NCBI GenBank assembly: GCA_963514005.1
Contig: OY740786.1
Location: 37,882,001 to 37,946,000, forward strand
DNA from: Raja brachyura
Lineage: Eukaryota
Length of the DNA: 64,000 nucleotides
Direction: 5' to 3'
The stretch's first letter is position 1. Each line of letters opens with the position of its first letter. Under the pieces are notes generated by a model that did no database searches, had not been told where the DNA came from, and saw only the letters and a program-made list of their open reading frames with translations. The position numbers were made by a program, and so were the translations under genes. Shown piece by piece: positions 805-50,982 of the stretch.

Positions 805-1612
805 CACTTCCAGAAGTGGCGGCGCTGCCCTAGCAGCTGCGGCTTGCCTGCAGTCCATCAGTTTTTTTTCTATTTTTTGGTGTCCTTGTCCTGTTTTAGC
901 TAGTTAATTTATTAGGGTGTGCATGTGTGGGGGGGGGGGGGGGTTGGGAGAAACGTGTCTTAGTCTCTTCCTTCGGGGGGGAATGCGACTTTTCTTGTCG
1001 TATCCCCCATCTGCGTCTGCAGTGAGGCCTAATGGCAGAGCCTCCAACTGCGACCGACCTGAGGCTCCGGAGGTAGAGCCAGCCAGGACTTACCAGCGAG
1101 AGGCTGGCTGACTTCGGGGCTGTGGCTGGTTCAGGCGGTGGTGATGGCCTGACTCGGGGCTGAGGAGGTGTCCTGGTGGCGGCGGCAGTACGACGGCCTG
1201 ACTCGGGGCTGAGGAGGTGTCCCGGCGGTACAGCAGCCCGACCTCGGAGGATCGGCCGCGGGCCCAGCAGACGATATTGTCGGGAGCTCGCAGGACACAA
1301 GTTGGTAACCTGTTTTTCCGGCGCTCCCGCGGCAACAGGTTAGTCCGCTGGACTGAAGGGCCCGTTCGCGGAGCACGGTTGAGCCGCGGGACTTACTTAC
1401 CATCACTCGGTGGGGTCACATCATCGGAAGCCTGGATCGCCTCAGCGCAGAGGGAGAGCAAGGAGGGAAGAGACAAAGACTTAAGACTTTTGCCTTCCAT
1501 CACAGTGAGGAGGTGCCTGGTGAACCCACTGTGGTGGATGTTAATTTGGGTTTATTGTGTGTTTTGTTATTTTTTTAAATGTATGACTGCAAGGCAACAA
1601 AATTTCATTTCA
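805..1612 (+). mobile_element. GC-rich non-coding SINE-like element (family copy 1; 3' end cut by a Penelope fragment)
   Basis: Same layout as 21515-22335 and 50096-50982: a TGGCG head, a T/GT-rich tract, a CpG-rich body with an internal direct repeat (GCCTGACTCGGGGCTGAGGAGGTGTCC x2), the CCTTCCATCACAGTG..CACTGTGGTGGA hairpin and a TGTATGACTG..AAATTTC tail. Confidence 0.65.
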
Positions 1613-2075
1613 AAGGTCGGGTTCGGAATGGGAGGGGGAGTTGAAGTGCTGAGCCACAAGGAGATCAGGTTGGTTAATGCGGACCAAGCGGAGGTGTTCG
1701 GCGAAACGATCGCCAAACCTACGCTTGGCCTCACTGATGTAGATCAGTTGACATCTAGAGCAGTGGATGCAATAGATGAGGTTGGAGGAGGTGCAGTTGA
1801 ACCTCTGTCCCACCTGGAACGAATGCTTGGGTCCTTGAATAGAGTTGAGGGGGGATGTAAAGCAACAAGTGTAGCATCTCCTGTCGTTACAAGGGAAAGT
1901 GCCCGGGGAGGGGGTGGTGCCGGTGGGAAGGGAAGAATTGACCAGGGAGTTATGGAGGGAGCGGTCTTTGCGGAAATTGGCCGGGGGGGGGGGGGGGGGG
2001 GGGAGATGAGAAGATGTGGCGAGTGGTGGGGTCACGTTGAAGGTGCCGAAAATTCCGGCGGACTATTTGTTGTTA
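1613..2075 (-). mobile_element. Penelope-like element fragment (GIY-YIG endonuclease region)
   Basis: ORF 1610-2035: PGTFPCNDRRCYTC..RFNCTSSNLIYCIHCSRCQLIYISEAKRRFGDRFAEHLR, the Cys motif plus GIY-YIG domain of Penelope-like elements. Confidence 0.85.
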
Positions 2076-2659
2076 TAAAAGCCCAATTATTTCTACATTT
2101 AGCCTTCATCCTTACCATTTGGTCATTTGAAGCAGAGTCCTGAATTTTATTATAAATTTATCCCTAAGGTTCAACAATTCAACATTATTATATTTATGTA
2201 TATAAATAAAATCATAACTGTGATGGTATGCAGTTTGTGCCTTTGGTCTTCTGTTATCTTCAGTTCCACAATTGCAGCGAGATCTGAGTTCTCAGGAGTG
2301 TGCTATCACCTTGAAAACTATTAAAACATCATTGAGATTATCGTAAACAGAAATCTAGCTGAGGAGCCCGGTGATACAGACGGGGAAAGGCCTGAAGATG
2401 AAACTTCAAGATTACTTTGTCTGCAATATATTTCTATGATAATATGTAAATAAGATATTTGAGCATGCAATGTAATGACAATATAATTTAGGCACTGTAA
2501 GCTCGATTGTTAGTCTCCAAAAAAGAACATTTTTTTCTGAGATCTCCGATGCCCTCTTCAATCAAACATTAATAGGTAGAAATGAGCTTTGCTATAAGGC
2601 TGCTTACAGGTGAGCTTCAAATACACTATAAGTATTAAAGAGGTAAACAGGTGAAAGCC

Positions 2660-3968
2660 AAATCCAAGACATAGCTATGAGCACTTGCATGGGCCGCAGC
2701 TATGCCTGCCTCTTTGTAGCATACACTAGCCCTATCCCCAGACTCTACCTCCACTACATTGATGACTGCATCGGTGCAACTTCCTGCACCCATGTGGAAC
2801 TCACTGACCATCAACTTCACAACTAATTTCCATCCTGCATTCAAATTAACTTGGACCATTTCTGACATCTCCCTGCCGTTTCTAGATCTTATTGTCTCCA
2901 TCACAGGAGACAGACTATTGACTGACATCTATTACAAACCCACTGACTCCCATAGCTATCTAGACTACACTTCTTCCCAACATGCTTCTAGTACAGACTC
3001 TATCCCCTAATCCCAATTCCTTCGTATACACCTCATCTGCGCCCAGAATGAAATTTTCCATCCCAGATCATCGGAGATGTCCTCATTCTTTAAGGAAAGG
3101 GGGGTTCCCCTCTTCCATTATAGATGAGGCTCTCACTAGGGTCTCCTCAATATCCCGCAGCGCCGCTCTTGCTCCCCCTTCCCCCATTCGTAACAAGGAC
3201 AAAGTCCCCCTTGTCCTCACCTTCCACCCAATCAGCCGTTGCATACTGCATATAATCCTCCAACATTTTTGCCACCTCCAACGGGATCCCACTACTGGCC
3301 ACATCTTCCAACTCCACCCCTTTCAGCTTTTCGCAGAGACCGTTCCCTCCGCAACTCGTCCCTTCCCACTCAAACCACCCCTCCCCCCGGTAGTTTCCCT
3401 TGCAACCGCAGGAGATGCAACACCTGTCCCTTTACTGTCCCCCTCGACTCCGTCCAAGGACCCCAACAGTCTTATCACATGAGGCAGAGGTTCACTTGAT
3501 CTACTGTATCCACTGTTCCAGGTGTCAACTCCCGTATATCGGCGAGACCAAGCGCTGGCTCGGCGATAGTTTCGCTGAACACCTTCGCTCAGTCCGCCTA
3601 AACCTACCTGATCTCCCGGTTGCTCAGCACTTAAAACTCCCCCTCCCATTCCCAATCTGACCTTTCTGTCCTGGGCCTCCTCTATTGTCAGAGTGAGGAC
3701 CAGCGCAAATTGGAGGAACAACATCTCATATTTTGCATGGGCAGCCTACACCACAGCGGTATTAACTTTGACTTCAAGTAGCCCTTGCTTTCCCTCTCTC
3801 ACCATCCCCTCCCCCTTCCCAGTTCTCCCACCACTCTTACTGTCTCTGACTGCTTTTCATCTCTGTACCGCCCACTTGCCTGACATCAGTCTGAAGAAAG
3901 GTCTCGGCCCGAAATGTCACCCATTCCTTCTCTCCAGTGATGCTGCCTGTCCCGCTGAGTTACTCCAA
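2660..3968 (+). mobile_element. Decayed Penelope-like element (RT C-terminus, GIY-YIG, 3' pseudo-LTR)
   Basis: Fragments LPFLDL..TDIYYKPTDSHSYLDY, KVPLVLTFHP, CNRRRCNTC and IYCIHCSRCQLPYIGETKR across frameshifts, then a pyrimidine-rich UTR and the terminal motif GATGCTGCCTGTCCCGCTGAGTTACTCCA. Confidence 0.9.
3891..3918 (+). ncRNA. Degenerate minimal hammerhead ribozyme motif in a Penelope pseudo-LTR
   Basis: CTGAAGA-A-AGGTCTCGGCCC-GAAATGTC matches the CUGANGA..GAAA..NUH core. Stem II is partly mutated. Confidence 0.55.
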
Positions 3969-4429
3969 GGTGAAAGCTAATGACATATTCCTTAAAGATG
4001 AGGTCCAGAGTTTCTGTTACACCTTTTGGGCGGACAGGGTGCAGTTTCTGAGTATCTTTCTTCTGATGTATTAAATAGTAGGAATAGTGTCACTAAAAGC
4101 ATCAGCATTATTGATGACACATTTTGCATTCCATATCTGAGGGGCCAAGATATCAGGAAATAATCCTCTAGACTTAAAAGTTGGATGGGGTCAGTGCTTC
4201 AAAATATGTCTTTATCTATCTCACTGATTATTCAGATTGTCCGAATCATACTTGCAAATCTCAGTGTAAACATTATTTTTCCTTTCTTCCCTTGTTTATC
4301 CTTCCACTCTGATTCTCTTTCACTGCCGTTGTGGGTTTATTCTCTTGTTGAAGCTTGGACAGACTGTAAATTGATGATGAACGCATCTAATTGCAGCAGT
4401 CTCTACAAGGCCTGACTGTCTGTCCTCTT

Positions 4430-5040
4430 CTGCTACCATGTGGCCAAGATTCCAGACTGTGTTTTGCATAGTTTTAGCAGACACTCATTCATCGACTCCA
4501 TGCCTCTTTCATACACTGGCCTGTCTGTCCTTAACCTTCTCCACTGTCATACTGAGGCTAAGCACAAACTAGAAAAGCAGCATCTCACATTTTGCTTGGG
4601 TAGCCAACAGACCGGCATAAACATTGAATTTCAAACCTTCAGGCTACCCCAGTCCCATTTTGGTTCCTTCTCACTTCACACAGCTAACCAAGTTATTTTT
4701 TTCTTTGTTCATCTTTTCAACATCTCTCCCCCTCCAACCCCACCTACCCAAGTTATTTTTTCTTTTGTCATCTTTTCAATCTCTCTCCCCACCGCACCCC
4801 CATGCTACCTAGATTCTTCACCCTCCCCCACCTGTTCCATCTGCCCTTCACCCACATACCATTGTACCAGGGTTTCTTACCCCTTTGTTCAACTTTCCTA
4901 TCCCCTCCCCTGCTGGCTCCATCTGCTTGCCATCCCTCCCTGCTCTGGCTCCACTACCACCCTGTCTCTCCCCTCCCCCAAAGGGCTTTGCCTGTCTGTT
5001 GTTTTTTCTTACTCCAATTTTCTCGCATTCATCCAGTTTC
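4430..5040 (+). mobile_element. Highly degenerate Penelope-like 3' fragment
   Basis: Translates to ..EAKHKLEKQHLTFCLGSQQTGINIEF, the C-terminal motif also seen at about 3700 and 51440. A pyrimidine-rich UTR follows. Confidence 0.6.
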
Positions 5041-5358
5041 ATCCTAAACTGGTTGAGAGTGAGCATATGCATATAATGACAGTATGTGCATGTAACTGGG
5101 AATTAAGGGGTTAGCAAATTGAAATGTTGAGATTTATGAGTAGAGACCGAGTCAAGTGAGCCTCAGTTTTTCCCCTGGAGAAAGGAAAACACCACTGCTT
5201 CTTTGGACCCAATATTCTGAAGGCTTCATTTTGCTTTTGTATCCACTTGTGACTTGTTTCAAAATCAGTCTTGTTCCAGAGAAGTCAGGGAAGCTGAGCC
5301 ATTCTACAAAGAATAAATTCTTTCTTGATTTAGCCAGGGAAAATAGACACACAAAGAA

Positions 5359-5532
5359 AGAAAATTCTCTGCCACAGAAGGCAATGGAGGCCAATTCACT
5401 GGGTGTTTTCAAGAGATAGTTAGATTTAGCTCTTAGGGCTAACTAAATCAAGGGATATTTCGGCGAAAGCAGGAACGGGGTGTTGATTTTGGATGATCAG
5501 CCATGATCATATTGAATGGCCTACTCCTGCAC
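5359..5532 (+). mobile_element. CR1 3' end fragment
   Basis: AATTCTCTGCCACAGAAGG..GATCAGCCATGATCATATTGAATGGCCTACTCCTGCACCT, homologous to 140-358. Confidence 0.8.
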
Positions 5533-8500
5533 CTATTTTTCATGTTTCTATGAAAGACGTAATTATTTCCTGCATTGTGTTATCGCTCTCAAGACCACCC
5601 CTACATATTTTGCAGTCAAAATACATTAGAATGTATTGAAATTGTATTTTAACTACTTGAAAGTCTCAGGCCAGGAAGACAATAGACAATAGACAATAGG
5701 TGCAGGAGTAGGCCATTCGGCCCTTCAAGCCAGCACCTGTTCGAAGATCGATAATTTTTTGTTCAGCGAATGCATGTATTTAACATATAAAAAATAAACA
5801 ATCGCACCCACAACCAGAATTGTTGGTCAGAAGAAGTGGAAGTGTTCTACTTTCTCCAGGAGCAAAACTGGGGCTTTTCTTGACTTGGCCTCTGCCCTTG
5901 GCTCTCACAATGTCATTTTATTAACCCCTCAATCCGCATTTATTTGCACATCCTGTTGTGATATGTTTGTGCTCACTCCACTTATTTTTTGGCTGAAATT
6001 GGATAAACAGAAGAAAATAAGAGCAAGAGTAGTTCACCTGGTCTTTCACTCCTGCCTCACCATTCAATACGATTATGGCAGATGTATAATGTTTAAAGAA
6101 GTCCAGCAAGTTGAAAGGTTATTTTTGGTTTCAACCATTTTACGCTAACTTGCGAATACTTTATCTACTAATTTGTTATTTTGTTTATTTAACAAATAGA
6201 TCCCAGATAACTAAACCTATCGGAACCTAGAGGCAGGCAACTCAAATGCCAAATGACCATCCACATCAGACCAGCAAGTTCTCACATAAAGACTATTGAA
6301 AGTATCTGACTTGATTTTACATTTTCATTGATTTAAGAGCATCGAGCATCCCTCTGCTTCTGAAAGTACCTCATTATTTGTCAAGTTTCCTGGGGTAGTT
6401 TAATATCTAGAAAGGTGTTATCAAAATGCAATCTCTTCATTTTTTTGCCCCTCCTACATTAGCCTTTCCTTCATTTCTTGAGTAGCAACAGCATCTAAGA
6501 TTAAGACTCAAGCAGAACAGCATATGCACCATCTCTTTGTGTAGATTCAATTTAAAACGTACCTTTTAGATGCCATAAATTTCACTAGTGGTGGTTCAGG
6601 GAACCAGATGTACAGATTAAAAATGTTGTGCAATGCATATAAGTAAAATGTGAGAAATGGCTTTACAGTTATGAATTGGAACTATTACTGTAAGTACAGA
6701 GGAAGAGGAGTCAATCAGCATTTTGTAAAATAAGTTGAATTATCATTTGGGACAAAATAATTTGCTGGGCTATGGGGCACTGGGGAATGGGACAAATCAG
6801 ATTACTGTACTGGGAGCTGACAGACTTGATGGACTGAATGGCATGATATGATATGATTTTAAGAGCAGATGTTAATCCATATCATGAATTTGAAACAAGT
6901 TAAGAGAAACTTTTAAATCGGAAATGATGAAGGTGTGGAGAGGAAAAGGTGACGTTGACATTGTTTTCACAACATTGCAGCTATTAGTGAGTTGTGAAAG
7001 ATGTGGACTTTTAAAACTTCCTTCCTTGAATAAAATATTTGGAATTAGTTATACATGTAGGTCATGTCCTGAAGCCTGGAACCACCCAAGATCATCTAAA
7101 TTAGTTGTCAACTGTTATCATTTAAATGTGATCATAAAATCACCTGCATGTATGGACACTCCTATTGTGTCTTCCCATGAACAACTGAGAACAATGAATC
7201 ATTTGATATTCACGGTCAAATACACAGTCAGGGATTCCAAACAGTGTAATACTGTTGATAAGCTGACCTCCAGTAAAACTAATTAAAAGTCCTTGCCATA
7301 CACTGACCCATGACAACTGTTCAATATTTTATCTATTACACCACGGCTTCTGAATATTCATTTGTTGTGTTGCCCATCTCCATTTCCTACCAACATAAAT
7401 AGAAATTGCCAATGTATTTTTGAATTAATGTTTTCTCTCTTTTTTATTAAAGGAGATGCCAGAGAACAATGAAATAACATGTAAATTCTAATCTTCATAA
7501 TTATCAATACCATTTTACAAACTGGAATGGTTTAATTTCTTAATTGACTTTAATTATGCTTGTTACTTTTGTAACAACAGTTGCCTACAACAATTTGTAT
7601 TTGTTGTAAACAAGTCCACCCATCAAAGCATTAAGAACATTGTAAAATGTAATCACAAGATGTCTTAGATTTTTTCTCTCTCTCATAATTCAATGAAAAT
7701 TAATATGTATCAGTAATTAATATAGATGTTTCTATGAATGACTTGACATTCTCCAGTCCATGTTACACAATACTGGGCCTTGATATATTTATTCCCTTCT
7801 GTTTTAACAATAGGCTAATCCTTAGAAAAGAATTCACAATGTGGTAATCAGGCTTTGCACCAGAACAGAAGTGACTGCTGCTGATTGATTTAAAATGGTA
7901 TTGGATCTCACTGTTGTTACTGGATATTTCAATGCTATTGGTCTTCCATGATAGCACTGATAAGAAATACTTGCAGCAGAAACTCCTCCTGAAGAGCAGA
8001 TACAATTTCCAAGACCACAGGGAGCTGAAAGCCATAGTGCTGGATCAGGAACTTTCATAACAGCAAGCAAATTCAGGTCTTATCAGGTTACAGCTCCAGC
8101 AGCTCACATATTTCAGAATGCACATTAGAGCCTGCAAGTCTTGGCTCTGTATGGGGCGCTTAACAAGCAGATAGTTCAGAATGACCTTTCATTGTGGATC
8201 AAATCTTAGTTGTCATGCTATTAAAATGAAACAGGAGATTTCATTTGGTTTCATCTGTTGTTTCTGCGATGGGGACTTTTGGATGGTTCATATAATACTG
8301 CAAAAGCCAAAACCTTGGGCAAAAGTGTCCCACCAGAGTCAAGATCACAGCCAAAGACAGTATGGACACTTCTTTGCACCAATGGTTGTTAAAGGTCTCA
8401 ATTGAAATCAAAGTACTGAAAGCAGTGTAGGCCCTAATAATATTGGTTCAGTAAATATTTAATAAAATGAGCAGTTTAATAAATTGTTTTGCTGATGGTA

Positions 8501-21467: not shown

Positions 21468-22960
21468 CATAAGGGCATGAGGAATTGGAGTAGGATTAGG
21501 CCATTCGGGCCCATTCAAAGATGGCGGCTCTTCACAGCAGCAGCCTCTGCAGTCCGTCTGTCTTTTAAAATGTTTTTTGTCCCGTTGAGTGTATAGTTTG
21601 GTTGTAGTTTATATATTGTTTTTAGCTGTGATTATGTGAGGGGCGGAAACTTTTAAATCTTTTCCCTGTACGGGGGACCCGACCTTTTTCCTGTCGCTTC
21701 TCTGTTGTCGTTGGGGGTCTCCAACCGGAATGACCTGGGGGCTCCCGTCACGGAGCCTGCGGACTCACCATCGTGGAGTTGGCCGGCTACGGAGCGTGGA
21801 GATCTGTGGTGGCGCGCAACTGCGACCCGACTTCGGAGCTTTGGAGGCTCCAGCCGCAGGCACGGTGGACGGTGACATCGGGCGCTCGTGGGTCCCTGGT
21901 GGGAGACCGCTTTTCGGAGCTCCCGCAATGGCAACTTCTCCCGCCCGAATTGCGGGGTTGAAAACGACCCGGAGAAAACGACCTTACATCGCCTGTCGTG
22001 GCTTTAATGGCCGCGGGACTTGCCATCGCCCGCCGTGGGCTCCAACATCAAGACCCGGAGCAGGGCCTTACATCGCCCGGCGCAGCCTTATCGGCCGCGG
22101 GACTTGCCATCGCCCGCCGGGGACTTTAACATCGGGAGAAGAATGGAAAACAGGGGAGAGACGATGACTTTGCCTTCCAACACAGTGAGGAGGAGATTCA
22201 ATGTGATGGATATTTGTGTTAATTGTGTGCCTTGGTTTTTTTTCTTCTGGTATAACTGCAGAAACCAAATTTTGTCTGAACTTCATTTGAGGTTCAAATG
22301 GCAATAAACGGTATTGTATATGGTATATTGTATCAAGTCTATTCCGCCTATTCAATCATGGCTGACCTATCTCTCCCTCCTTACCTCATTCGCCTTCCAT
22401 CACCCCATAACTACTGACACCTGTACTAATCAAGAATTTATCTATCTTTGCCTCAAAAATATCCAGACTTGGCCTCCACAGCATTCTGTGACAAAGAATT
22501 CCACAGATTCACCACCGACTAAAGACATTTCTCCTCATCTACTTCCTAAAATAACGTCCTTCAATACTGAGGCTATGACATCTAGTCCTAGACTCTCCTA
22601 TTAGTGGAAACTTCCTCTCCACATCCACTCTATCCAAGCCTTTCACTATTCTGTATGTTTCAATGAGGTTCCCTCTCATTCTTCTAAACTCCAGCGAGTA
22701 CAGGCCCAGTGCGGACAAATGCTCATCATAGGTTAACCTACTAATTCCTGGGATCATTCTTGTAAACCTCCTCTGGACCTTCTCCCGAGCCAGCATCCTT
22801 CCTCAGATATGGTGCCCAAAATTGCTCACAATATTCCAAATGCAGCCCTACCCGAGCCTCAACATTACATCCCTGTTTTTTTTACAAGCCCTCTTGAAAT
22901 AAATGGTAGCATTGAATTTGCTTTCTTTACTACCGATTCGATTTGCAGATTAACTTTTTG
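21468..22960 (-). mobile_element. CR1 3' fragment interrupted by a SINE-like element
   Basis: The 3'UTR at 21468-21512 resumes at about 22339. ORF 22539-22796 reads KVQRRFTRMIPG..LGLYSLEFRRMRG. Confidence 0.8.
21515..22335 (+). mobile_element. GC-rich non-coding SINE-like element (family copy 2, apparently complete)
   Basis: Starts TTCAAAGATGGCGGC. Has an internal repeat (CCTTACATCGCC..GGCCGCGGGACTTGCCATCGCCCGCCG x2), a hairpin box at 22176-22210, and ends TGGCAATAAA plus a GTATT-like microsatellite. It interrupts a CR1 3'UTR. Confidence 0.75.
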
Positions 22961-27265: not shown

Positions 27266-28216
27266 GGTTTTTTTTGGGAGCGGAGCTCTGCACTTAGTCA
27301 TACTTTGGACCCAGCTTCCCAATTCAAGGACAGAAAGGGCCGGTATGATTGACCCTCTGCATCTGATCTGGGGAAAGGTGTGTCCATGGGAACTGCAGGC
27401 AGCAACTTCAGGCAAGAAGCTGAGTCCAATAAGGGTTGACCAATGCTCAGTCCAGTAATTGTCGTACTGATGCATAACTAATTTACATCTCTTCCTCATC
27501 TCTTGCTTGATTGATGTATGATTCTGTTTTAATTATGCACTTGGCATCCTCTGCACATCATCAAGTATTTAATTTAATGAAATTCACTCAATTTTAAATA
27601 TATCCTGTAATAATGTGTAATCAACGGTCAATGTGTAATAGAACAATTTATGCCACACTATTTAAGCATATACACAATGGAAAACATGGTTTAATGATGC
27701 TTAATGTTGAATAACATAATATCTTACTTAATCACCTGAAACATATTTACATGACTGGCAGCAACTGCAGATGTGTAATCACTAATATAATATACTTTAT
27801 AGTCCACAATGAACACTGCAGATTAACCCAGCTTTTAGATCAACAAGTCTACGATGGATTCCACTGCTTAAATAACAAGAGTGCTAATTACATCACCAAT
27901 ACATTCCAGCCTATATCGTTTGCCTTACTGAATTAAAAGAACACTTGTTAATTGTGCAGCTTTGGTAATATCTAAATCACCTTTCTTAATTCTTGTAGAA
28001 ACATTTTTTTTTAAAGCATAGTAAGATTGAAGGTAACAGTGACTTAGAGGTATCAGGTTTTCAAAGCACATTGATGATGAATCTTATTCATGAAAATACA
28101 GCTCGGAAAAATAAATTAGTGAAGCACTGACATAGTGAGTTGTACCGCCCTGTAGCAAAATACTGTCTTGTTCAATTATCTGGTATGAATTAGTATACTG
28201 GGATAAAACTCTTCTT

Positions 28217-29568
28217 GAATCACAATCCTGTTACTCCTCGTCTCTCCCAGCTTTAGTATATTCCTCCCTGCCATTGAAACCTCCTGGATTTACATCCAAC
28301 CCTGTCATACTATCAACCATCAAAATTTTTAACCAATTTCGTTGCCATTATGAGCTTACATCAGCTTCATTTCTTGGTCCCATTCTCAGTAACCATTTAT
28401 TCCCCCCCTCTACACTTGACTCAACCTTTCGACAGTGGGGTTTCAATAGTCTTATGTCCATTAAGGATTTATACACTAACAACATATTTGATAGTTTCGA
28501 CTACCTACACAAAAAACATGGCCTCCCACATAATCATTTCGTTAAATATCTTCAGGTTCGCCACTTTGTCATGAACAAATTTCCTTCTTTTCCTGATCTC
28601 CCTCCTCACAGTGTTGGATAAACTCACTCTTACCTTTGCAAATAAGGGACTGATCTGTGCTGTATATTCTCGATTGATGTATTTAGGAGATCAAAACCTG
28701 AACAAAGATAAAGCTAGGTGGGAGGATGACCTTGGTATGGATCTGCCTGAGGAATGCTGGACAGAAGCGCTGAAAAATGTCCACTCCTCATCATCATGTG
28801 CTAGATTTGGGCTCATACAATTTAAAATTTTACACAGGGTTCATTTAAGCAAAGCCAGGCTTGCTATCATATATCCAGGGACGGACGCTGGCCGTGACAG
28901 GTGCTCGTTCTCTCCAGCCAAACTAGCTCATGCATTCTGGTCTTGCCCCAAACTTGTTAACTACTGGGCAGTGGTTTTTAAAACCATCAGTGAAGTCCTT
29001 GGGTTGACAATGAGACCCTGCCCGCTTGTAGCTGTATTTGGTGTAACAGATAAAACCTTGGGTTTAAATACAACCCAGTCTGATATCATTACATTTACAT
29101 CACTTTTGGCCCGTAGGAGAATCTTCCTGGTCTGGAAATCTAACACTCCTCCATCTGCCGCTGCTTGGCTGGAAGACGTGATGTTTTTTTTAAGGTTAGA
29201 AAAGATTAAATTCACATTGAGGGCGTCTGTGAAAAAGTTTTATTTGAAATGGAAACCCTTTTTATCATACTTTGAGGGTCTAAAGGAACTACCTATTGAC
29301 TGAGGGCACTTGACATTAAGTGGGGATCTGCCTTTATTCTGTTTTGTTACTTTATTATTGTTAAAAAGTGCATTTGATTTTGTGATATATTTGGATTGTG
29401 AAACAATAAGCTGCCAAGGGGTGTTTAGGGAGGGTGGGTTAGGGTTATTTTGTTTATATTATTATTATTTTTATTTATAAAAAAACAAAATGGAGGAAAA
29501 TGTAATGCCATACATCAGATGTACTGTGAATTTTTTTCCCCTCCAATAAAAAACTATTAATTAAAAAA
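28217..29568 (+). mobile_element. 5'-truncated L1-clade LINE with TSD
   Basis: ORFs 28274-28621 and 28611-29303 give the L1 ORF2 C-terminus (KYLQVRHF; LIQFKILHRVHLS; DRC..HAFWSC). AATAAA at 29545 and an A tail follow. TSD AAAACTCTTCTT at 28205-28216 and 29569-29580. Confidence 0.9.
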
Positions 29569-31744: not shown

Positions 31745-31963
31745 CGAGGCCCCCGACCAAGGAAGAACAACAAGGAAAGGACGGAACTTTATTTTCGCCT
31801 TCCATCACAGTGAGGAATGTGTAGGAGTCACTGTGATGGATGTTTATCTTAAAATGTGTTTTTTGTTTCTGTTGCTTTTTTAAATTGTATGACTGACCTT
31901 GCCAGTGTATTTCACTATGCCAATTGGTGTATGTGACAATAAATTAACTTATGAACTTATGAA
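31745..31963 (+). mobile_element. 3' fragment of the GC-rich SINE-like family
   Basis: Perfect 13-bp stem TCCATCACAGTGA/TCACTGTGATGGA at 31801-31840, then TGTATGACTG..TGACAATAAA and an (AACTTATG)n tail. Confidence 0.75.
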
Positions 31964-32845: not shown

Positions 32846-33664
32846 AGGCCTCCTCTAACCTTATCTACTACACTTGGTACTCCTGCTGTGACCTTTTTCG
32901 CATTGGCAAGAACAAGCATTGACTAGGCAAATATTTTGCTAAACACTTCCACTCTCTGCTAAGGCCTGAAGGATCTCCTGGTTGCTACAAATTTAACTCC
33001 CTTTCCCATTCTCACACTGACTTTTCCCTCCTTGGCCTCTCCCATTGCTGGAGTGACGCCACACGCAAAAGAACAGCATGTCTTACTCTGCTTGGTTAGC
33101 CTACAACCCAATGGTATGAACATTGAATTCTACAATTTCAAGTAATACACCTCCAAATCATCTTCTCTCCCACTGCTCCCCCACTACTCCAGTGCACACA
33201 CATTTTTCCCACCATTTTCCACTCGTTCCCTGTCAACCCGTGCGTTCCTTCCTGTGCTCATCCCTATCCCCAAGTCCTACAGTTTATTTTTATCCCACCT
33301 CTTTCCCCTCCCCCTGTCCCATTCCACCATATCCTTCACTCTGGGTTTACATTTCTATCCTCTTCTTTCCTTATCTGACATCCTCTTCTCCTTTTCACCT
33401 CCAGCCTTTGTCACTTACTCCACCCAGCTGCCACCCCTGCAACCATCTGTATTAACCTATCACTTAGCAAGCTTTACCACCCCCCCCCCCCACCCTCCAC
33501 CCCCCCACCCTGCTTCTCTTTTTGAGTTTTCTCCCCCTTTGCCAAGAAGAGTCATGACCAATATTGTCTGTCTATCCCCTCCACGGATGCTGTCTGACCA
33601 AATGAATTCCTCCAGCACTTTGATTTTTAACCAGTAGTGTTCAGCATTCTGAGATTCTTACCTA

Positions 33665-35278
33665 CAGTGGCTTGCAAAAGTATTCATACCCCTTGAACTT
33701 TTCCACATTTTGTCACGTTACAACCACAAACGTAAATGTATTTTATTGGGATTTTATATGATAGACCAACATAAAGTGGTGCATAATTGTGAAGTGGAAG
33801 GAAAATGATACATGGCTTCCAAATTTTATTACAAATAAAAAACTGAAAAGTGTGGCATGCAAAAGGATTCAGCCCCCTTAACCAATACTTTGCAGAATCA
33901 CCTTTCGCTGAAATTGGAGCTGCAAGTCTTTTAGGGTATGTCTCTACCGGCTTTGTATATCTAGAGACTGAAATTTTTGCCCATTCTTCTTTGCAAAATA
34001 GCTCAAGCTCAGTCAGATTGGATGGAGAGCATCTGTGAACAGCAATTTTCAGTCTTGCCAGAGATTCTCAATTGGATTTAGGCCTGGACTTTGACTGGGC
34101 CATTCTAACACACGAATATGCTTTGATCTAAACCATTCTATTGTAGCTCTGGCTGTATGTTTCAGGTCATTGTCCTGCTGGAAGGTGAACCTCCACCCCA
34201 GTCTCAAGTCTTTTGCAGACTCTAACAGGTTTTCTTCCTAGATTGCCATGTATTTGGCTCCATCCATCTTCCCATCAACTCTGACCAGCTTCCCTGTGCC
34301 TGCTGGAGAAAAGCATCCCCACAGCATGATGCTGCCACTTCCATGTTTCACAGTGGGGATGGTGTGTTTAGAGTGATGTGCAGTGTTAGTTTTCTGCCAC
34401 ATATAGCGTTTTGCATTTAGGCCAAAAACTTCAATTTTGGTCTCACCAGACCAGAGCACCTTCCGCCACATGTTTGCTGTGTCCCCCACATGGCTTGTGG
34501 CAAACTGCAAATGGGACTTCTTATGGTTTTGTTTCAACAATGGCTTTCTTCTTGCCACTCTTCCATAAAGGCCCGATTTGTGGAGTACACAACTAATAGT
34601 TGTCCTGTGGACAGATTCTCCCACCTGAGCTGTGGATCTCTGCAGCTCCTCCAGAGTTACCATGGGCCTCTTGGCTGCTTCTCTGATCAATGCTCTCTTT
34701 GCCCGGCCTGTCAGGTTAGGTGGACGGCCATGTCTTGGTAGGTTTGCAGTTGTGCCATACTCTTTCCATTTTCGGATGATAGATTGAACAGTGCTCTGTG
34801 AGATGTTCAAAGCTTGGGATATTTTTTTATAACCTAACCATGCTTTAAACGTCTCCACAACTTTATCGCTGACCTGTCTGGCGTGTTCCTCAGGCTTCAC
34901 GATGCTGTTTGTCACTAATGTTTTCTAACAAACCTCCGAGGCCTTCACAGAACAGCTGTATTTATACTGAGATTAGATTGCACACAACTGGACTCTATTT
35001 ACTAATTAGGTGACTTCTGAAGGCAATTGGTTGCACTGGATTTTATTTAGGGGTATCAGAGTAAAGGGGGCTGAATACCTTTGCACACCACAATTTTCAG
35101 TTTTTTATTTGTAAAAAGATTTGAAAACCATGTATCATTTTCCTTCCACTTCACAATTATGTGTCACTTTGTGTTGGTCTATCACATAAAATCCCAATAA
35201 AATATATTTACATTTGTGGTTGTAATGTGACAAAATGTGGAAAGGTTCAAGGGGTATGAATACTTTTGCAAGCCACTG
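33665..35278 (-). mobile_element. Full-length Tc1/mariner (IR/DR type, Passport-like) DNA transposon
   Basis: TA-CAGTGGCTTGCAAAAGTATTCATACCCCTTGAAC.. and ..GTTCAAGGGGTATGAATACTTTTGCAAGCCACTG-TA. TIRs are about 215 bp with inner direct repeats. Length 1614 bp. Confidence 0.97.
33882..34900 (-). pseudogene. Tc1 DD34E transposase, inactivated
   Basis: GRPP, GRVARRKPLL, VLWSGETK (catalytic D to G), TVKHGSGSIMLWGCF, premature TAG at 34238-34240, then FQQDND and [15 protein letters not shown], with a frameshift near 34050. The start codon reads GTG. Confidence 0.95.
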
Positions 35279-37327
35279 TATTTATAACAGCTGTTGAGAT
35301 AAATTGCCTTTCTGAATTTTCTGTTGTGGGTAAATCCCTTATATAAACACGTCTTCAGTTGATAATTCCCACTACAGAAATCAGCTGATTATGATGAATT
35401 GGCCTATAATGCGTTTTCTTTTTAGTGTTTTGCAAGTGATTCGTAGTTCATCATAGATTTGGTTAGAATGTAAATTGAGTTTCTGAAAGCTGACATTTAT
35501 TTCCTCCATAATCTTTCCTCAGGTTTCAATATCTGTGCAATTATCCATAATCTATCAACATCATTTGTTCCAAATTCCTGTCCATCAAATTAACAGCAGA
35601 ATAATTAGCTTGCTGGAATTGACTCCAAATTAACCTGGCGTTTATTTATCTCTTTGGTTGACAAGACATGCTTCGTGTCACTTGTTCCAAGTTTCTATGG
35701 TCTCTCACGCTTCCTTGTTCCCTGTGACCACCTAGTGGGGTCCAGGAAGGCTATTCGAACAATTTACATTGGGGATAGTGTTCACACTGAGAACTGCAGC
35801 TGATATGAAGCTGAGGGTCAGATAGAAAGTGCATTCAGCCTCTCAGTTCAGTAAGTTAGTGAATATCCCTGGTCTCAAAAGGACCATCTAGGGATGTTAG
35901 TAAGCAATGTCTAGAGGCCAGGTTGCCACTCACGGCCTGCCCTACTTATGGGATGTCTTAAACAGAGCCCTCAAGGCTATTGGGAGCTATGCAAGGGCAA
36001 AAATCACTGTAGTTGCAGGGATAGCTGGATGGATGAAGTTTGTTTGCAACCTTGGTTCTATATTTTATCTTACTTATACCAAAGGTTTGTGCTTTAAATC
36101 GCCAACATAAGGTTGATGATTTTAACTGAAGAATATTTAACATTATTCCCAATCAACCATGAGTCATTCCAATTTGGAATACTGCCATTACCCATATCAC
36201 TAGTTACTTATTCAAAACAACATTTCCTTCAGTAAGAAGAGAGCCTTTGATATTTTCCGCTGATTTGCATCCCCGTTGTGCAAGAGGGTTGAAAGAACAA
36301 GTTATTTATGCAGACAGAAATGCCTTCATATATTTACAAATAATTAAATAAATATAATCTCTCAATAAAATAAATCCTTGCATGTCAATAGTTTCATACT
36401 GTGCATTATGTTGGGGATCAGACTGACCATCATGTGATCGGCGGTAAAATCACCAAAGCACACCCTCAATATTTAATTTTGAAATGATTTTTGAAAAACT
36501 GCAACATGAGCTTGGGAAAACAGAGCAAAAATGCTCTTTTTCTGAATTGTTGAATTCCATGAAGATCACCATGGAAACAAACTATGGAGAACATATATTC
36601 TGGAAATCTCTCTGTGCATTGTCAGTGACTTGTGATGTCAGGATGCAAAGCTCATGATTGGCGGGAGTACTATAATGATTTATAAACCTGCACACTAACA
36701 AAAACTTTTCTTCAATGCCTGCACATGCCGCATTTTAAATTAATGTAGTCTCCCAATTGAAGACTAGGCTCATGGAGAGAGGGGAAAAGATCAGCAATAT
36801 TATCTTTCATCTTTGTATTCTATCAGAATACATTTTTGATATGGATTTTTTTTATTTAAAATCATTAATGTTATTTTGAGCCCCATTTTCAGGATGGAAT
36901 CAATTGGAGTCCCTCACACTCTCTCCAAATGTGTGATTGACAGCTGGCATCTTTCAAATGTAAAATCAAACATTACTGCAGAATCTCCCACAAGAACATA
37001 AACTGTGAAATTACATGAATATTTCTTAATTCATTTCTTTGTGGAAAAAAAATTAAAGTTGTTATATATCAAGTTATGAATAAGTGATGAGTTTGTATCA
37101 TTCAGTGCAAGAATGGTTTTATTTTAAACTAGACTAAGTGGGACCCGTTGGGTCCCATGTTCACATGGGAGGGCTGGTCCCTCAACGCAATATTCCACCT
37201 CTCCACCAATTCCAATTGGGGCCAGTTGGGGGGGAGGGGCTTTCTGGAGTGCTAGTATGGGTGTTGTGGTCTGAAGGGACTGGTTTTTAGAAGCCTAGTA
37301 TGGACATTGTGGGCTGAATGGATTCTT

Positions 37328-37440: not shown

Positions 37441-37455
37441 ATTCCTTGAAATTCC

Positions 37456-42870: not shown

Positions 42871-42957
42871 TCTTACAGTGATCATATCGAGGATCGTGTA
42901 AAGGAAAAAAATAAAGAGAGCTAAATAAGGAGAAAAATAAGAGAGCTTATCAGAAAT

Positions 42958-43257
42958 GTGTAGTTTAGTTTAGAGATATAGAATGGGAACAGGCCCTTCG
43001 GACCACTGAGTCCATGCCAGTCATTGATCACCTGATCACACTAGTCCTATGCTATCCCACCTTCTCATCCACTCCCTGCACACCAGGGGCAATTTATGGA
43101 GGCAAATTAACCTCCACACCTACGCTGTCTTTGGGATGTGGAAGGCAACTCACATGGGGAGAACATGGAAATTCCACACGACAGCATGCGAGGTTATGAT
43201 CGAACCTGGGTCTCTGGCACTGTGAGGCAGCAGGTCTCCCAGCTGCACCACTGTGCC
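42958..43257 (-). mobile_element. HE1-type V-SINE, near complete
   Basis: The minus strand starts GGCACAGTGGTGCAGCTGG (A-box-like) and has CCAGGTTCGATC (B-box-like), a V-core remnant, a CR1-type tail CCGAAGGGCCTGTTCCC and (CTAAA)n. Confidence 0.8.
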
Positions 43258-44640: not shown

Positions 44641-45481
44641 AACTATAGTTGACTAAAAAAGTTAAAGATTGTATCAAACATACAGCAGCTATATAAGTGC
44701 ATACATATGAATGGCAGGTCAGAAGTTCAGACAGAATATTAAAAAAAAACAATTAATGGCTAAAGGATTATTATAGAAACAAAAATTAGCGTGTGAATAA
44801 AGCTGTGAGAATTATAAAAATAAGTGGTCAGAATTTCTACAGATCCTTAAAAGGGTTACCATGTTGAAAGTGACTCCAGGGCATAAAAAATGAGATTCAA
44901 GGTGATGGCAGATGAATTAACCAGGTTGTTCACATCCGTTTTCACTGTATAGGATATATAATATCCCAGATATATCTGCAAATCAGTAGAGAAGGAGGAA
45001 ATCAGAAAAATTACAATTCAATGATTCAATTCAATGATACTTTATTGTCACATGGACCTAGATACAGTGAAATGCTTTGTATTGCATACAACCCAGTAAA
45101 ATCATATGGCAGACTTTACCATTAAGAGCTGCCACTTTTCTGGCACCTACAAAGTTACAAAAGTTCACTGAACAGTCCTTTCTTCTGCCTGCAACCAGGC
45201 CCCGCTGTGTCCCTTTAGTTCTTGGTGCCCACCTGCCCACCAGGTTCCCCCCTTTGTTCATGACGCCCCCCCCCCCCCCCCCTACCGGGTAACTGAAAAG
45301 TCTCTGGATCGTGATAGAACTTCCCTTGGATTTTTAAGTATTTAGTTACATAGATAGATGATGTGCTAGGTTTAGTTTTTGCCCAAATTTATCAAAGGTT
45401 TCCATTAGATTTAAAATAGCAAATGGACTTCTTTTTTTTCCAAAAATGGAGACAAGAAAAGCAGAAAAAGATTGCCCAGTT

Positions 45482-45862
45482 AGAAACATAGAAAATAGGT
45501 GCAGGAGTAGGCCATTCAGCCCTTCGAGCCTGAATCGCCATTCAATATGATCATGGCTGATCATCCAACTCAGCATCCTGTACCTGCCTTCTCACCATAC
45601 CCCCTGATCCCTCTAGCCACAAGGGCCACATCTAACTCCCTCTTAAATATAGCCAATGAACTGGCCTCACCTACTTTCTGTGGCAGAGAATTCCACAGAT
45701 TTACCACTCTCTGTGAGAATTTTTTTTTCTCATCTCGGTCATAAAAGACTTCCCCCTTCTCCTTAAACTGTGACCCCTTGTTCTGGACTTCCCCAACATC
45801 GGGAGCAATCATCTTGCAACTAGGCTGTCAAATCCCTTAAGAATTGTGTAAGTTTCTATAAG
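45482..45862 (-). mobile_element. CR1 3' fragment
   Basis: Reverse complement homologous to 1-358. ORF reads FSQRVVNLWNSLPQKV. Confidence 0.9.
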
Positions 45863-45964
45863 AAATGGGTTGATGAACAGTTTGATGAACATATATCATA
45901 GAGAAAATGCTATGTCAGTGAGAATATGTTTGATCTATTTATTGCAGTTCTTTGAAATTCTTTG

Positions 45965-47923
45965 AAGGGCAAAGCAGGCAAACGCAAGGCAGCTTGACTC
46001 ACGAGGGCAATTGAGACGTTGGTCAAAAACAAGAAGGATGCATGGGGACAGGTATAGGCAGCTGGGATCAAGTACATCCTTGGAGGAGTTTTTGGAGCTA
46101 AGGTGTAAACAGAAAAAGGAGATCAGCAGGGCAAAAAAGGGCCAGGAGATAGCTCTGGCGGGTAGGATTAAGGACAATCCCAAAAATATTTTAATATATA
46201 AGGGAGAAAAGGGTAATTAGAGAGAGAGAGAGTGGGACCTCTCAGGAATCAAAGCTGTCACCTCTGTGTGGATCCACAGGAGATGGGCGAGGTCCTCAAT
46301 GAGTATTTCTCCTCTGTATTTACCGAGGAGAAAGACAGTAGGATGGAGGAACTTGGCTCAGTCAATGATAGTGTCTTGAGAGCAGTCAGTGTTACCATCA
46401 AAGACGTACTGAGGGTACTGTCGTGTTTGAAGGTTGATAAATCTCCAGGGCCTGATCAGAAATATCCGAGGACATTGCGGTAAACTAGAAGGGAAATTAT
46501 GGGAGCCCTGGTTGAAATTTTTATGAGTTGTCCTTAAATACGGGAGAGGTGCCGGAAGGCTGGAGGGTTGCAAATGTCGTGCCTCATTTCAGGAAGGGCT
46601 GCAGTGAAAATGCTGGGAACTATAGGCCGGCTTAACATCTGTAGTTGGAAAGTTACTGGAGAGTATTCTGAGGGATAGGTTATGCAGGCATTTGGATGGA
46701 AAGGGCTAATTAGGGATAGTCAGCATGGTTTTGTACATGGGAGGTCATATCTCACAAATCTGATTGAATTTTTTGAAGACATGACCAAAAGGGTCGATGA
46801 GGGCAGAGCTGTTGATGTTGTGTACATGGATTTCAGTAAGGCATTCAGAAAGGTTCCACGTGGTCAGCTGCTCTGGCAGGTTAGATCACATGGGATCCAA
46901 GGAGAGATAGCTGAATGGATAGCAAATAGGCTCAGTGGAAGGAAGCAGTTTGTGATGGTCGAAGGTTGCTTCTCAGACTGGAAGCCTGTGACTAGTGGTG
47001 TGCCTCAGAGTTCCGTGCTGAGCCCGGTACAAAATGGGTGGTTTTGCAGATAGTGAAGATGGTTGTGAAAGATTGCACAGGGTCTGGATCGATGGGCCAG
47101 GTGGGCCGAGGAATTGTTGATGGAATTTAATACAGAGAAGTGTGAGATATTTCATTTTGGGACATAGAACAAGGGCAGGACCTACACATTAAATGGTAGG
47201 CCTCTGGGTAGTGTTGTAGAGCAGAAAGATCTAGGTGTACAGGTGCATGGTTCCTCGAAGGTCGAGTTGCCGGTGGATAAGGCGGTCAAAAAGGCTTTTG
47301 GCATTTTGGCTTTTATCAGTCAGAGTATTGAGTATAGAAGTTGGGGGGTCATTTTGCAGTTGTATAAGACATTGGTGAGACCGCATTTAGAATATTGTGT
47401 TCAGTTCTGGGCACCATGTTATAGGAAAGATATTGTCAAGCTTGAAAGGGTTCAGAAAGGATTTACGAGGATGTTGCCAGGACTAGAGTGTGTGAGTTAT
47501 AGGGAGAGGTTGAGTAGGCTGGGTCTCTATTCCATGGAGCACAGGAGGATGAGGGGGGATCATAGAGGTGTACAAAATCATGGTAGGAATAGATTGGGTG
47601 GATGCACAGAGTCTCTTGCCCGGAGTAGAGGAATTGAGAACCAGAAGACATAGGTTCAAGGTAAAGGGGAAAATATTTAATAGGAATCTGAGGAGTAACT
47701 TTTTCACACAGAGGGTGGTGGGTGTACGGAACAAGCTGCCAGAGGAGGTAGTTGAGGCTGTGACTATCCCATTGTTTAAGAAACAGTTAGACAGGTACAA
47801 GAATAGGACAGGGTTGGAGGGATATGGACCAAGCGCAAGCAAGTGGGACTCGTGTAGTTGGAACATTGTTGGCCGGTGTGGCCGATTTGGGCCAAAGGGC
47901 CTGTTTCCACACTGTATCACTCC

Positions 47924-47925
<2 letters not shown>
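45965..47925 (+). mobile_element. 5'-truncated CR1 LINE (RT half, decayed)
   Basis: [49 protein letters not shown] and FFTQRVV, then the 3'UTR followed by (CT)n. Confidence 0.92.
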
Positions 47926-47956
<31 letters not shown>

Positions 47957-48084
47957 ATTAACTATGTGCCATACATTGAAAGGAATCGCCACATTATAGA
48001 TTATCAAAAGCATTTAATAAAATGCTGCATCATAGGTTATTGTGGACGATAAAAGATATGAGAATATCATTTTGGTCATAATCA

Positions 48085-49235
48085 TCAAGTTATAGTGATA
48101 CAGTGTGGAAACAGGTCCTTCGGCCCAACGTGCCTACACCGGCCAACATGTCCCAGCTACACTAATCGCACCTGGTCACATTTGGTACATATCCCTGCCA
48201 ACCTGTCCTACCCATGTAACTGTCTAACTGTTTCTCAAATGTTGGAATAGTCCCTGCCTCAACCACCTTCACTGACAGCTTGTTCCATACACCACCACCC
48301 TTTGTGGGGAAAAAACTACCCCTCATATTCCTATTAAATCTTTTTCCTTTCACCTTAAACCTATGTCCTCTTGTCCTTGATACGCCTACTCTGGCAAGAG
48401 ACTGTGCATCTACCTGATCTATTCCTCTCATGATCTTATACACATCCATAAAATCACCCCTCATTCTTCTGTGCTCCAAGGAATAGAGTGGCATCTTACT
48501 CAACCTCTGCCTATAGCTTAGCCACTCTTGTCCAGGCAACATCCTCGTAAATCTTCGCTGTACCCTTTCAAGCCTGCCAACATCTTTCCCATATCAGTGC
48601 CCAGAACTGAACACAATACTCTAAATGCAGCCTCACCAACATCTTATACAACAGCGACCTCCCAACCTCTATACTAAATATGTGTAGGAAGGAACTGAAG
48701 ATGCTGAAGATAGACACAAAATGCTGTAGCTCAGCGGGACAGGCAGCATCTCTAGAAAGAAGGTATGGGTGATGTTTTGGGTCTAGACCTGAATCTGAAG
48801 AAGGGTCTCGACACAAAACGTCAAGTCTGAAGAAGGGTCTCGACCCGAAATGTCACCCATTCCTTCTCTCCAGAGATGCTTCCTGTCCCGCTGAGTCACC
48901 ACAGCTTTTTGTCTCTATATTCAATATTCTGGCTGTTGAAGGCCAATGTGCCAAAAGCCTTTTTGACCACCAGATTTATCTGTGACTCCACTTTCAAAGA
49001 ACCATGCACCTGCACTTCTAGATCCCTCTGCTCTACAACACTACCCAGAGCCCTGTGTAGATCTTGCCCATATTAGACATTCAAAAATGCAACACCTCAC
49101 ATTTCTCTGCATTAAATTCCATCAACCATTCCATCAACCATTCCTCAGTCCACCTGGCCAATGATCAAGATCCTACTGCAATTTTTCAGAACCATCTTCA
49201 CTATCTGCAAAACCTCCCATTTTGTATCATCTGCA
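48085..49235 (-). mobile_element. CR1 3' fragment interrupted by a Penelope fold-back
   Basis: ORFs 48162-48542 and 48568-48816 ([13 protein letters not shown]). The CR1 sequence resumes after 48920. Confidence 0.85.
48680..48920. mobile_element. Penelope pseudo-LTR fold-back with tandem hammerhead motifs
   Basis: Inverted arms CTCAGCGGGACAGGCAGCATCTCT / AGAGATGCTTCCTGTCCCGCTGAG enclose two CTGAAGAAGGGTCTCGAC motifs at 48795 and 48827. Confidence 0.8.
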
Positions 49236-50095
49236 AACTTACTTATCTTGCTGTGGTGCGGAGAAAAGATTGGCTGGCGAACAGCAAGCAGAAAGTGGGC
49301 ATAAATGGGTCGTGTTTTTTTGTTGACAGTATATGACCAGTGGTGCACCACAGTAATTGATGTTGGGAACTCAACTTTTGCAAGTGATGTAAATAACATG
49401 GATGAAATGACCATGGAGGATTACACAATGAAAGGTAACAACGTAAGTTTTGAAGAGTACATTAAGAGGCTACAATAGGATATATACAGGTTTAATGAGT
49501 GATATAATGTTTGGCATATGAAATATATTACGGAAAATGGCAAATTGCCTCTTAAGTGAAGCATTTTATCCGCAGCGCATCTAGATTGAAAAATCAGATG
49601 GGAAAAGTACGTTAAGAAGAACAGTAGTATTTTCTTGGAGCAACACATTCTGGAGCAGGTTACACTGGAGCTAATATGGTGAAATTGATTCATTGAGTCA
49701 TGCAGCACAGAAAGAAACCCTTTGGCCCAACCAGTTCATGCCAACCAACTGCCCATCTAAACTAATCTCATTTGCCTGCATTTGACCCTATCCCTCGAAA
49801 CCTTTTCTATCCATGTACCTGTCTATCCATGTACCTGGTTGCATCGTGGCTTGGTTCGGTAACTTGAACGTCCAGGAGCGGAAAAGATTGCAGAAAATGT
49901 GACCACTTCCCAGTCCATCATCGGCTCTGACTTCCCCACCATTGAAGGGATCTATCGCAGTCGCTGCCTCAAAAAGGCTGTCAACATCATCAAAGACCCA
50001 CACCACCCTGGCCACAATCATCTCTCCATTGCCATCGGGAAGAAGGTACAGGAGCTTGAAATCTGGAACATGCAGGTTCAGGAACAGCTATTCAG

Positions 50096-50982
50096 GACAT
50101 CCGATGGCGCTGTTACTAGCTGCCTCCGCCCACAATCTGGTTGTCTTTAAAAAAAAAATGTTTAGAGTGTGTTTTTTTTTAGTTTTCTTTCAGTATTTTA
50201 TGTGGAGGGAAGCACACAGGGTAAGGGGGATACAGTCCTTCAGTCGCATCCTGGCGAGGATTTGGCTATTATTCGAGTTGCGTCCTCGCCCCCCCCCCCC
50301 CCCCGCGGCCTACCAAATGGATTGACGTGGCCTTTCTTGCCGGGACCGGACCAGAGCTTCAGCAGCTGCGGCGCTGTGCTCGATACATCGTGGAGCGGGC
50401 AAGGCTTTACCTGGGATCGCCGCTTGGAGCTCTGGAGTGTTGGGCCACTGCTCCAACATCGCGGAGCTGTGGGTGCAGAGTACCCAACAAGGGCGGCGCT
50501 GACTTTAACATCGCGGAGTCCTGGGACCTTTTGCTGGGAGTTGCCAGTGGGAATCTCCGCCCAGCACGGCCTGTGGACATCGGGAGCCGTGGACTCTGGT
50601 GGAAGGTGTAAAGTGGCCGATTCAGAGGTCCAGCCGCTGAGGATGTTCTCCCGTTTGACGTCTTGGTTCCATCGTTTCTGGCATGAGGGCCTGAACATCG
50701 GACCACCCGTAGCGGCGACCATGGGGTGCTTGGGAGGACCCGGTCATGGGTGAACATTGGGGAACATCAGCGAGGAGGTTGACTGGACTTTGGTTCCTTC
50801 CCTCACATTGGGGAACTTTGGTGCCGCTGTGGGGATGTTTGTGTTGTGGACTACTGTGTTCTGTGTTTTTGTGTTTTTTTAATTTAATTTTTTTGTATGA
50901 TTGTAAGGGAAAAATAATTTTGTTGGTTCTTAATTGAAGACAATGACAATAAATTAAATCAAATCATATAAAAAATCAAATC
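50096..50982 (+). mobile_element. GC-rich non-coding SINE-like element (divergent family copy 3)
   Basis: GATGGCG head, T-rich tract, CpG-rich body, CCTTCCCTCACA..TGTGGGGA hairpin, and a TGTATGATTG..AATGACAATAAA plus (AAATC)n tail. Confidence 0.7.

Follow-up and report, generated by a model that had tools for sequence, protein, structure and literature searches.

A group of non-coding retroposons with conserved hairpins and a Rex1-type tail in the genome of Raja brachyura

Four copies of one retroposon group in the window

The window analysed here, a stretch of 64,000 nucleotides of Raja brachyura contig OY740786.1 (positions 37,882,001 to 37,946,000), contains four copies of a GC-rich retroposon, together with repeats of CR1-type, Rex1, Penelope-like, and Tc1 origin and one long terminal repeat (LTR) element. 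The four copies represent four lineages of one non-coding retroposon group, 0.7–1.3 kb in length, and sequence comparisons across the 2.70-Gb genome indicate that they are probably RNA polymerase II (Pol II)-type bipartite parasites of the long interspersed element (LINE) Rex1 with an acquired structured core. The original prediction, made from the window alone, had reported four copies with a 3′ stem, all of which were recovered, and had described their bodies as poorly alignable, which proved incorrect: relatives of each copy were found at 76–94% identity, each copy representing its own lineage, and the three long copies have many full-length relatives at 76–88% identity and a 5′ hairpin module in common (942–1031, 21640–21721, and 50223–50312). 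The features are as follows, H0 and H1 denoting the 5′ hairpins and H3 the 3′ hairpin.

810..1609, plus strand: copy 1, lineage C, with a complete 5′ end, 3′-truncated within the tail hairpin; relatives begin with CCGGAAGTGGCGGCG and run beyond 1609 into the tail
942..1031, plus strand: copy 1, 5′ double-hairpin module H0+H1 with terminal GGCCTA (covariance model, 50.3 bits, E 2.8e-11)
1496..1538, plus strand: copy 1, H3, T·G variant
21517..22333, plus strand: copy 2, lineage A1, full length, within an older repeat
21518..21528, plus strand: copy 2, head motif AAGATGGCGGC of the TISU (translation initiator of short 5′ untranslated regions)/YY1 type, identical to the first bases of autonomous Rex1
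21640..21721, plus strand: copy 2, 5′ hairpin module (covariance model, 51.7 bits, E 1.2e-11)
22176..22210, plus strand: copy 2, H3, with two mismatches relative to the lineage majority
22268..22333, plus strand: copy 2, Rex1-type tail hairpin, GGCAATAAA, and a (TATTG)n-like microsatellite
31745..31963, plus strand: copy 3, lineage D, 5′-truncated, with a tail hairpin of the bulged class
31801..31840, plus strand: copy 3, H3, perfect 13 bp
49838..50094, plus strand: Rex1 fragment hosting copy 4, the C-terminus of a broken open reading frame (ORF), interrupted by copy 4 (from translation; tblastn end at 50093)
50095..50982, plus strand: copy 4, lineage B, full length, inserted in the end of the Rex1 ORF
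50223..50312, plus strand: copy 4, 5′ hairpin module (covariance model without lineage-B sequence, 22.1 bits, E 0.0006); H1 is 15 bp in the lineage majority
50799..50835, plus strand: copy 4, H3 variant
50983..51190, plus strand: remainder of the Rex1 fragment hosting copy 4, comprising its 3′ untranslated region (UTR) and tail

A profile of the 3′ module matched exactly these four copies in the window, and the covariance model of the H1 module, from which lineage B of copy 4 was held out, matched the three long copies and nothing else. The stems of copies 1 to 3 lie exactly where they had been placed, but that of copy 4 had been started 20 nt too early, at about 50779; the tail noticed at 51140–51185 is indeed that of a Rex1, but one belonging to the fragment that hosts copy 4. 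Copy 1 is cut at ~1609, where it adjoins another repeat, presumably a Penelope-like fragment, and copy 2 contains an 84-bp internal duplication at 21966–22133. Folding of the single copies is weak (z of −1.5, −1.0, −2.8, and +0.4 for copies 1, 2, 3, and 4, respectively), and the evidence for structure rests on the family.

The 3′-module profile, built from 107 seeds, was run on 40 blind 10-kb stretches (400 kb) and detected 13 modules, three of them partial, with none on reversed sequence; this extrapolates to ~88,000 modules genome-wide (Poisson range about 47,000–150,000). The 5′-module model gave seven matches in the same 400 kb, two of which were training rows. Clustering of 179 3′ modules yielded six groups of at least four members, plus 22 small groups or singletons. 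Lineage majorities are 740–868 nt long, with 56–59% GC and a CpG observed/expected ratio of about 0.9–1.0; most elements measure 0.74–0.87 kb, those of lineages with a variable number of tandem repeats (VNTR) being longer. The family is thus interspersed, present in more than 100 copies, and below 1 kb, as SINEBase states for short interspersed elements (SINEs) (PMC3531059).

From the 5′ end, an element consists of the head, a T-tract starting at +44 to +53, a G run, H0 and H1 at about +140 to +210, and GGCCTA; after the GC body follow a purine-rich stretch, H3, a GT-rich spacer, the tail hairpin, ATGACAATAAA, and a microsatellite whose unit of 5–6 nt is lineage-specific. The body contains internal repeats and, in several lineages, a further helix centred on GGGAGCTC (window z −2.4 to −6.0). 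A body VNTR of 26–53-bp units in 2–22 copies was found in 16 of the 20 loci of the C-G stem type; in the window copies it is absent or represented only by short duplications. The head is of the TISU/YY1, ETS, or GC-box type, depending on the lineage. The motif ACTTACC/ACTCACC recurs in element bodies and directly before H1 (L146, L294, L299, and L308; window 1087–1093 and 1394–1404); it reads as a minus-strand 5′ splice donor or as the plus-strand 5′ end of U1 small nuclear RNA (snRNA), from which an origin is unsupported.

The 5′ end is fixed, with unrelated flanks upstream of the head among copies, and of 30 lineage-D copies selected on the final 200 nt, 15 extend to the head. Target duplications are irregular (at least 7 nt in 2 of 34 cases, vs 0.9% of shuffled pairs). 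The combination of fixed 5′ ends, 5′ truncation, microsatellite tails, and no regular duplication is the signature of target-primed reverse transcription by an enzyme of the CR1 group.

Conserved hairpins of the 3′ and 5′ modules

The exact H3 hairpin pattern had 5,201 matches in the genome, vs 0 for the reversed pattern, and a relaxed pattern with two free positions per arm had 16,175. One pair of H3, counted by hand in the first 100 matches listed, was T-A in 30, T·G in 38, C-G in 32, and C·A in 0, where 9.6 C·A would be expected if the two positions were independent; genome-wide, the C·A form of this pair accounts for 85 of the 16,175 matches and is spread over all loop types, as expected from mutation after insertion. 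A pair that accepts T·G but avoids C·A is maintained on the plus strand, which fits an RNA and not a two-stranded cruciform. The predicted stem is thus kept across lineages, but H3 is mostly invariant, and the stronger covariation lies in H1, which the original prediction had missed. CACAGTG/CACTGTG, the heptamer of recombination signal sequences, occurs within the H3 arms; a V(D)J signal or Transib-like mini-transposon was rejected, since inspection by eye showed no nonamer at a spacing of 12/23 and the flanks are inverted, not duplicated. Pairing of the H3 loop with an upstream CCTTCC is incompatible with the long stem and was likewise rejected.

In H1, both-sided changes were found at 6 of 10 pairs among 15 lineage representatives, rows with no complete 5′ end found, one mis-picked row, and near-duplicate lineages having been left out. 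Its covariation score was 0.40, vs 0.295 in shuffled alignments (reached by 0 of 500), and dropped to 0.12–0.17 when the alignment was slid. H1 behaves as a shape, and H3 as a shape plus a sequence.

Within lineages, decay at non-CpG positions was measured to be 0.047 in stems vs 0.045 in the body for B, 0.041 vs 0.050 for C, 0.053 vs 0.079 for A1, and 0.085 vs 0.112 for D, the A1 and D sets having been partly chosen by stem. Stems thus decay about like the body after insertion, indicating that constraint acts on the amplified source copies and not through the host. Selection on a structured RNA, as originally proposed, accordingly stands for source copies but not for inserted ones. A host function of the hairpins in inserted copies, as regulatory RNA, microRNA-like precursor, or DNA cruciform, would suit the near-invariance of H3 and the presence of family sequence on assembled contigs of runs guessed to be RNA from three organisms (with almost none in a fourth, and giving no strand, start, or level); against the decay values, the broken pairs in window copy 2, and the one-strand pattern of T·G and C·A, it is very improbable.

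Rex1-like ends and the origin of the core

Autonomous Rex1 copies in this genome have single ORFs (1001 and 1013 aa) with endonuclease (EN) and reverse transcriptase (RT) domains and PF09004, and the youngest copies are 96–100% identical, many of them intact. Rex1 is described as lacking ORF1 and as reaching its highest coverage in rays (PMC13343379). A tail was recognizable at 61 of 104 Rex1 ORF ends, and these 61 3′ UTRs align to the element profile in its last ~70 positions only, in agreement with the Rex1-type tail proposed originally; the H3 core was found in 0 of the 61. The tail hairpins of elements and Rex1 have the same build. Plain and bulged classes occur in both, a hint of multiple driver families, and the dot-bracket of the bulged class is identical in lineage D and Rex1 L225/L232. 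The motif ahead of the tail hairpin was present in 87 of 109 element tails and 18 of 44 Rex1 tails, vs 18 of 3000 random places.

Elements were observed at Rex1 3′ ends in six distinct cases, one of them from a Rex1-selected locus. An insertion preference for Rex1 3′ ends was rejected, six cases being about what density gives. At one locus (L121, G000:C2:68958500-68966500), a VNTR-bearing element lies head-to-head with a full-length Rex1, about 80 nt apart.

At the other end, CAAGATGGCGGC forms the start of 23 of 30 young RexA copies. It fits the TISU consensus, and TISU transcription activity is reported to be mediated by YY1 (PMC3177215); the YY1-type motif noted earlier in copy 2 was found as AAGATGGCGGC at 21518..21528. 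The 14-mer CAAGATGGCGGCGC had 650 genome matches, vs 5 for a control, and the first 30 of these comprised 16 elements of this family, nine continuing into a Rex1 ORF (two being one place), three RexA head-tail stubs, and two others. Lineages A1, C, and the L324 type have their first 14 nt in common with Rex1 and show further similarity up to the T-tract. Once the TISU bases were taken out, p<0.05 was reached in 11 of 45 element–Rex1 head comparisons (best 0.0005); the alignments stop at the T-tract, which mirrors the T-rich codons in the hydrophobic N-terminus of Rex1. By this similarity, the elements probably begin with the 5′ end of Rex1 (TISU and the following ~45 nt) rather than with a 'SINE head' of separate origin.

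At least four Rex1 families (L241-L270, L328, L331, L344, and L346) start with TISU-type CAAGATGGCGGC, whose ATG, 4 nt from the 5′ end, is the first codon of the single ORF; in several of them, a hydrophobic N-terminal stretch comes next. A TISU four bases from the 5′ end could account for both transcription and translation of a LINE that has a single ORF and hardly any 5′ UTR.

Between head and tail, no match to the sampled Rex1 was found. None of five Rex1 5′ ends and 61 Rex1 3′ UTRs contains the core, the H1 model had no significant match in Rex1 loci, and blastn of three young Rex1 families against the window copies gave no similarity (best E 0.08). The elements are therefore not plain deletions of the sampled LINEs. 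They could still derive by internal deletion from a LINE, extinct or outside the sample, that already had H1 and H3 in long UTRs of its own, an idea suggested by the Rex1-like character of both ends and by true Rex1 head-tail deletion products in this genome: in L330:1501-1693, the first 96 nt of RexA are fused to its last 119 nt (95–98% identity), and L326 and L338 are stubs, all being single copies. However, the sampled Rex1 ORF starts 4 nt from the 5′ end and the 3′ UTRs measure about 150–340 nt, leaving no room for a non-coding core of 600–800 nt, and three body ORFs had no Pfam match; we consider such a derivation unlikely.

The absence of coding capacity and of a tRNA head, both predicted earlier, was borne out. 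Besides the missing Pfam matches, ATG frames in the head soon run into stop codons in several copies, and lineages B and C have none. ARAGORN found 0 tRNAs in 12 loci, and Rfam gave no match at gathering score in the window and none at E<0.9 in three element stretches. An origin from a cellular Pol II RNA, in which an element with its own TISU promoter, convergent with that of Rex1, captured the Rex1 tail alone, corresponds to the SINE-like version put forward originally. TISU elements are reported in 4.5% of genes (PMC3177215), several lineages have ETS-type or GC-box heads, and the core is without a known source; yet the Rex1 similarity extends past TISU to the codon-parallel T-tract, and no Rfam family matches, so that this origin, too, seems improbable.

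Least credible of all is an ordinary SINE of the RNA polymerase III (Pol III) type whose head would be a degenerate small RNA such as tRNA, 5S, 7SL, or U1. The H1 region looks U1-like by eye, and the H1 model gives a 7-bit match at the U1 5′ end. However, that match has an E of 3.3, the H1 profile did not score U1, and when the genome's own U1 was compared pairwise with H1 modules, p<0.05 was reached in only 4 of 28 cases (lowest 0.011), leaving a U1 origin unsupported; a U2-derived head, as in SINEU, was likewise not found through Rfam scans. No B box was found in the heads, and in the four tabulated lineages T runs of at least 5 begin between +44 and +53, arguing against Pol III. The length also exceeds the range of 75–662 nt given by SINEBase, and the heads lack the identity of at least 60% to tRNA, 5S, or 7SL over 60 nt by which it defines SINE heads, as well as, by sequence, its Pol III promoter (PMC3531059). 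The genome's U1 snRNA genes form two tandem clusters on contigs C35 and C19 (L311-L322).

With a head that is probably a Rex1 5′ end, the family would be a non-autonomous LINE of the bipartite kind, carrying a foreign core, and not a SINE in the SINEBase sense. By build and motifs, its 3′ end is that of a partner LINE, and it encodes no protein; its parts are not exclusively LINE-derived, the core being foreign to the sampled Rex1.

Several observations weigh against a Rex1 parasite with a structured core. The head similarity is short and partly the promoter motif itself; 34 of the 45 head comparisons, which are not independent, were not significant, those of lineages D and A2 never being so, and the heads of lineages B, D, and A2 have no significant match to RexA or RexB. 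No sampled Rex1 family has a tail near-identical to an element tail, the match being architectural, and the Rex1 UTRs were picked by the tail motif, which is partly circular. Of tens of thousands of Rex1 candidates, only five were sampled at the 5′ end and 61 at the 3′ end. As to structure, the lineages are related, and shuffle controls therefore overstate the significance of covariation; apart from the pair described above, H3 is nearly invariant, with a both-sided change at 1 of 10 pairs in an alignment of 22 lineage representatives from which one further row was excluded.

Proposed mechanism, known systems, and other repeats in the window

Intact young Rex1 copies in the same genome are candidate drivers of a Rex1-dependent parasite. 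The head (TISU/YY1, ETS, or GC-box) plus the CpG-rich body would act as an internal Pol II promoter and yield a capped RNA. Rex1 protein made elsewhere would then bind the tail hairpin, prime reverse transcription from the microsatellite, and copy the RNA into the nick; stem-loops are reported to be common at the 3′ ends of stringent LINE/SINE pairs (PMC3747384). H1 and H3 would be RNA elements raising the copying success of source copies. By analogy, and as the least certain step, for which the odds seem somewhat less than even, they may be bound by a host protein, which would make the untranslated RNA more stable or deliver it to new Rex1 protein. The Alu domain is thought to play such a role for L1.

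A more far-reaching reading, which we regard as possible but doubtful, is that the family is an old, still diversifying Pol II retroposon superfamily of rays and skates, whose lineages swap tails between Rex1 families and whose H1 and H3 constitute a new RNA device for hijacking a LINE reverse transcriptase, the counterpart of the Alu domain on a Rex1 chassis.

SVA is a non-coding composite retroposon with a GC-rich VNTR, transcribed by Pol II and copied in trans by L1, with poly(A), long target duplications, and Alu/HERV-K parts. The present elements resemble it in being non-coding composites with a GC-rich VNTR (in the C-G-type loci) and presumably in Pol II transcription and trans copying; they differ in having none of the L1 partner, poly(A), L1-type target duplications, or Alu/HERV-K parts, and end in microsatellites instead. 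RSg-1 is of Rex1 type. SINEs with RSg-1/Rex1 tails, namely SlmI, HpaI, OS-SINE1, and SINE2-5_NV, are likewise non-autonomous with a 3′ tail from a Rex1-type LINE, but are described with tRNA or 5S heads and Pol III promoters (PMC3747384), neither of which was found here. BuceSINE and ManaSINE2 of birds share a GC-rich head without small-RNA origin and mobilisation by a LINE, but are described with an RTE partner and a bipartite RTE tail, with no conserved hairpin core reported there (PMC4844689). HE1 V-SINE and SacSINE1 of sharks and rays come from the same broad host group, but are reported to have tRNA heads and CR1-type (HER1) tails (PMC3747384).

The closest relatives in function are the ORF-less bipartite non-autonomous LINEs, such as RIME/Ingi, NARTc/L1Tc, Bov-A, RTESINE2, WALLSI3, and the Vingi-1_EE derivatives (Kojima, 2018; PMC5786205). 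Those passages of the survey that list their sources give RTE, Ingi, Vingi, and R2 only, with Rex1 unmentioned. As described there, these have no ORF, two LINE-type ends, presumed Pol II transcription, and movement in trans, as would the present elements; the differences here are the Rex1 source, the mostly non-LINE structured core with covarying hairpins, and the VNTR of some lineages. In a review of Rex elements, the terms searched retrieved no passage on non-autonomous Rex1 (PMC6274825), and no description of the family was found in the open literature searched, a scope outside which lie supplements, Repbase with its Reports, Dfam, and most subscription papers; some automated consensus for it probably exists. 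The family works like an ORF-less bipartite non-autonomous LINE.

If a Rex1 parasite with an acquired core is the right reading, ORF-less bipartite LINE parasites would extend to the Rex1 clade, unlisted in the passages of the 2018 survey, and on a scale of tens of thousands of copies that are likely mislabelled in repeat annotation. The family would also supply covariation data, generated by evolution, on RNA elements with which a non-coding Pol II transcript can overcome the preference of a LINE for its own RNA, and the intact young Rex1 copies in the same genome make a retrotransposition assay possible.

The remaining repeats of the window include, at 1612–2069 and 3249–3665, what we take from sequence motifs to be Penelope-like fragments and, at 28139–29303, presumably an L1/Tx1-like ORF2 C-terminal remnant, all without a Pfam match. 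A Tc1/Sleeping-Beauty-type remnant at 33663–35280 has ~220-bp inverted repeats (91%) and a transposase fragment. On the minus strand, 54225–58948 is a young Gypsy-like LTR element, whose LTRs are 98.6% identical over 215 bp and whose ORFs (513, 188, and 750 aa) include RNase H and integrase domains. A 590-bp GC-rich insertion in a CR1 fragment (60188–60777), with 44-bp terminal inverted repeats starting with AAGGGCCTGTCCCAC and an apparent TTAA duplication, looks like a non-autonomous DNA transposon.

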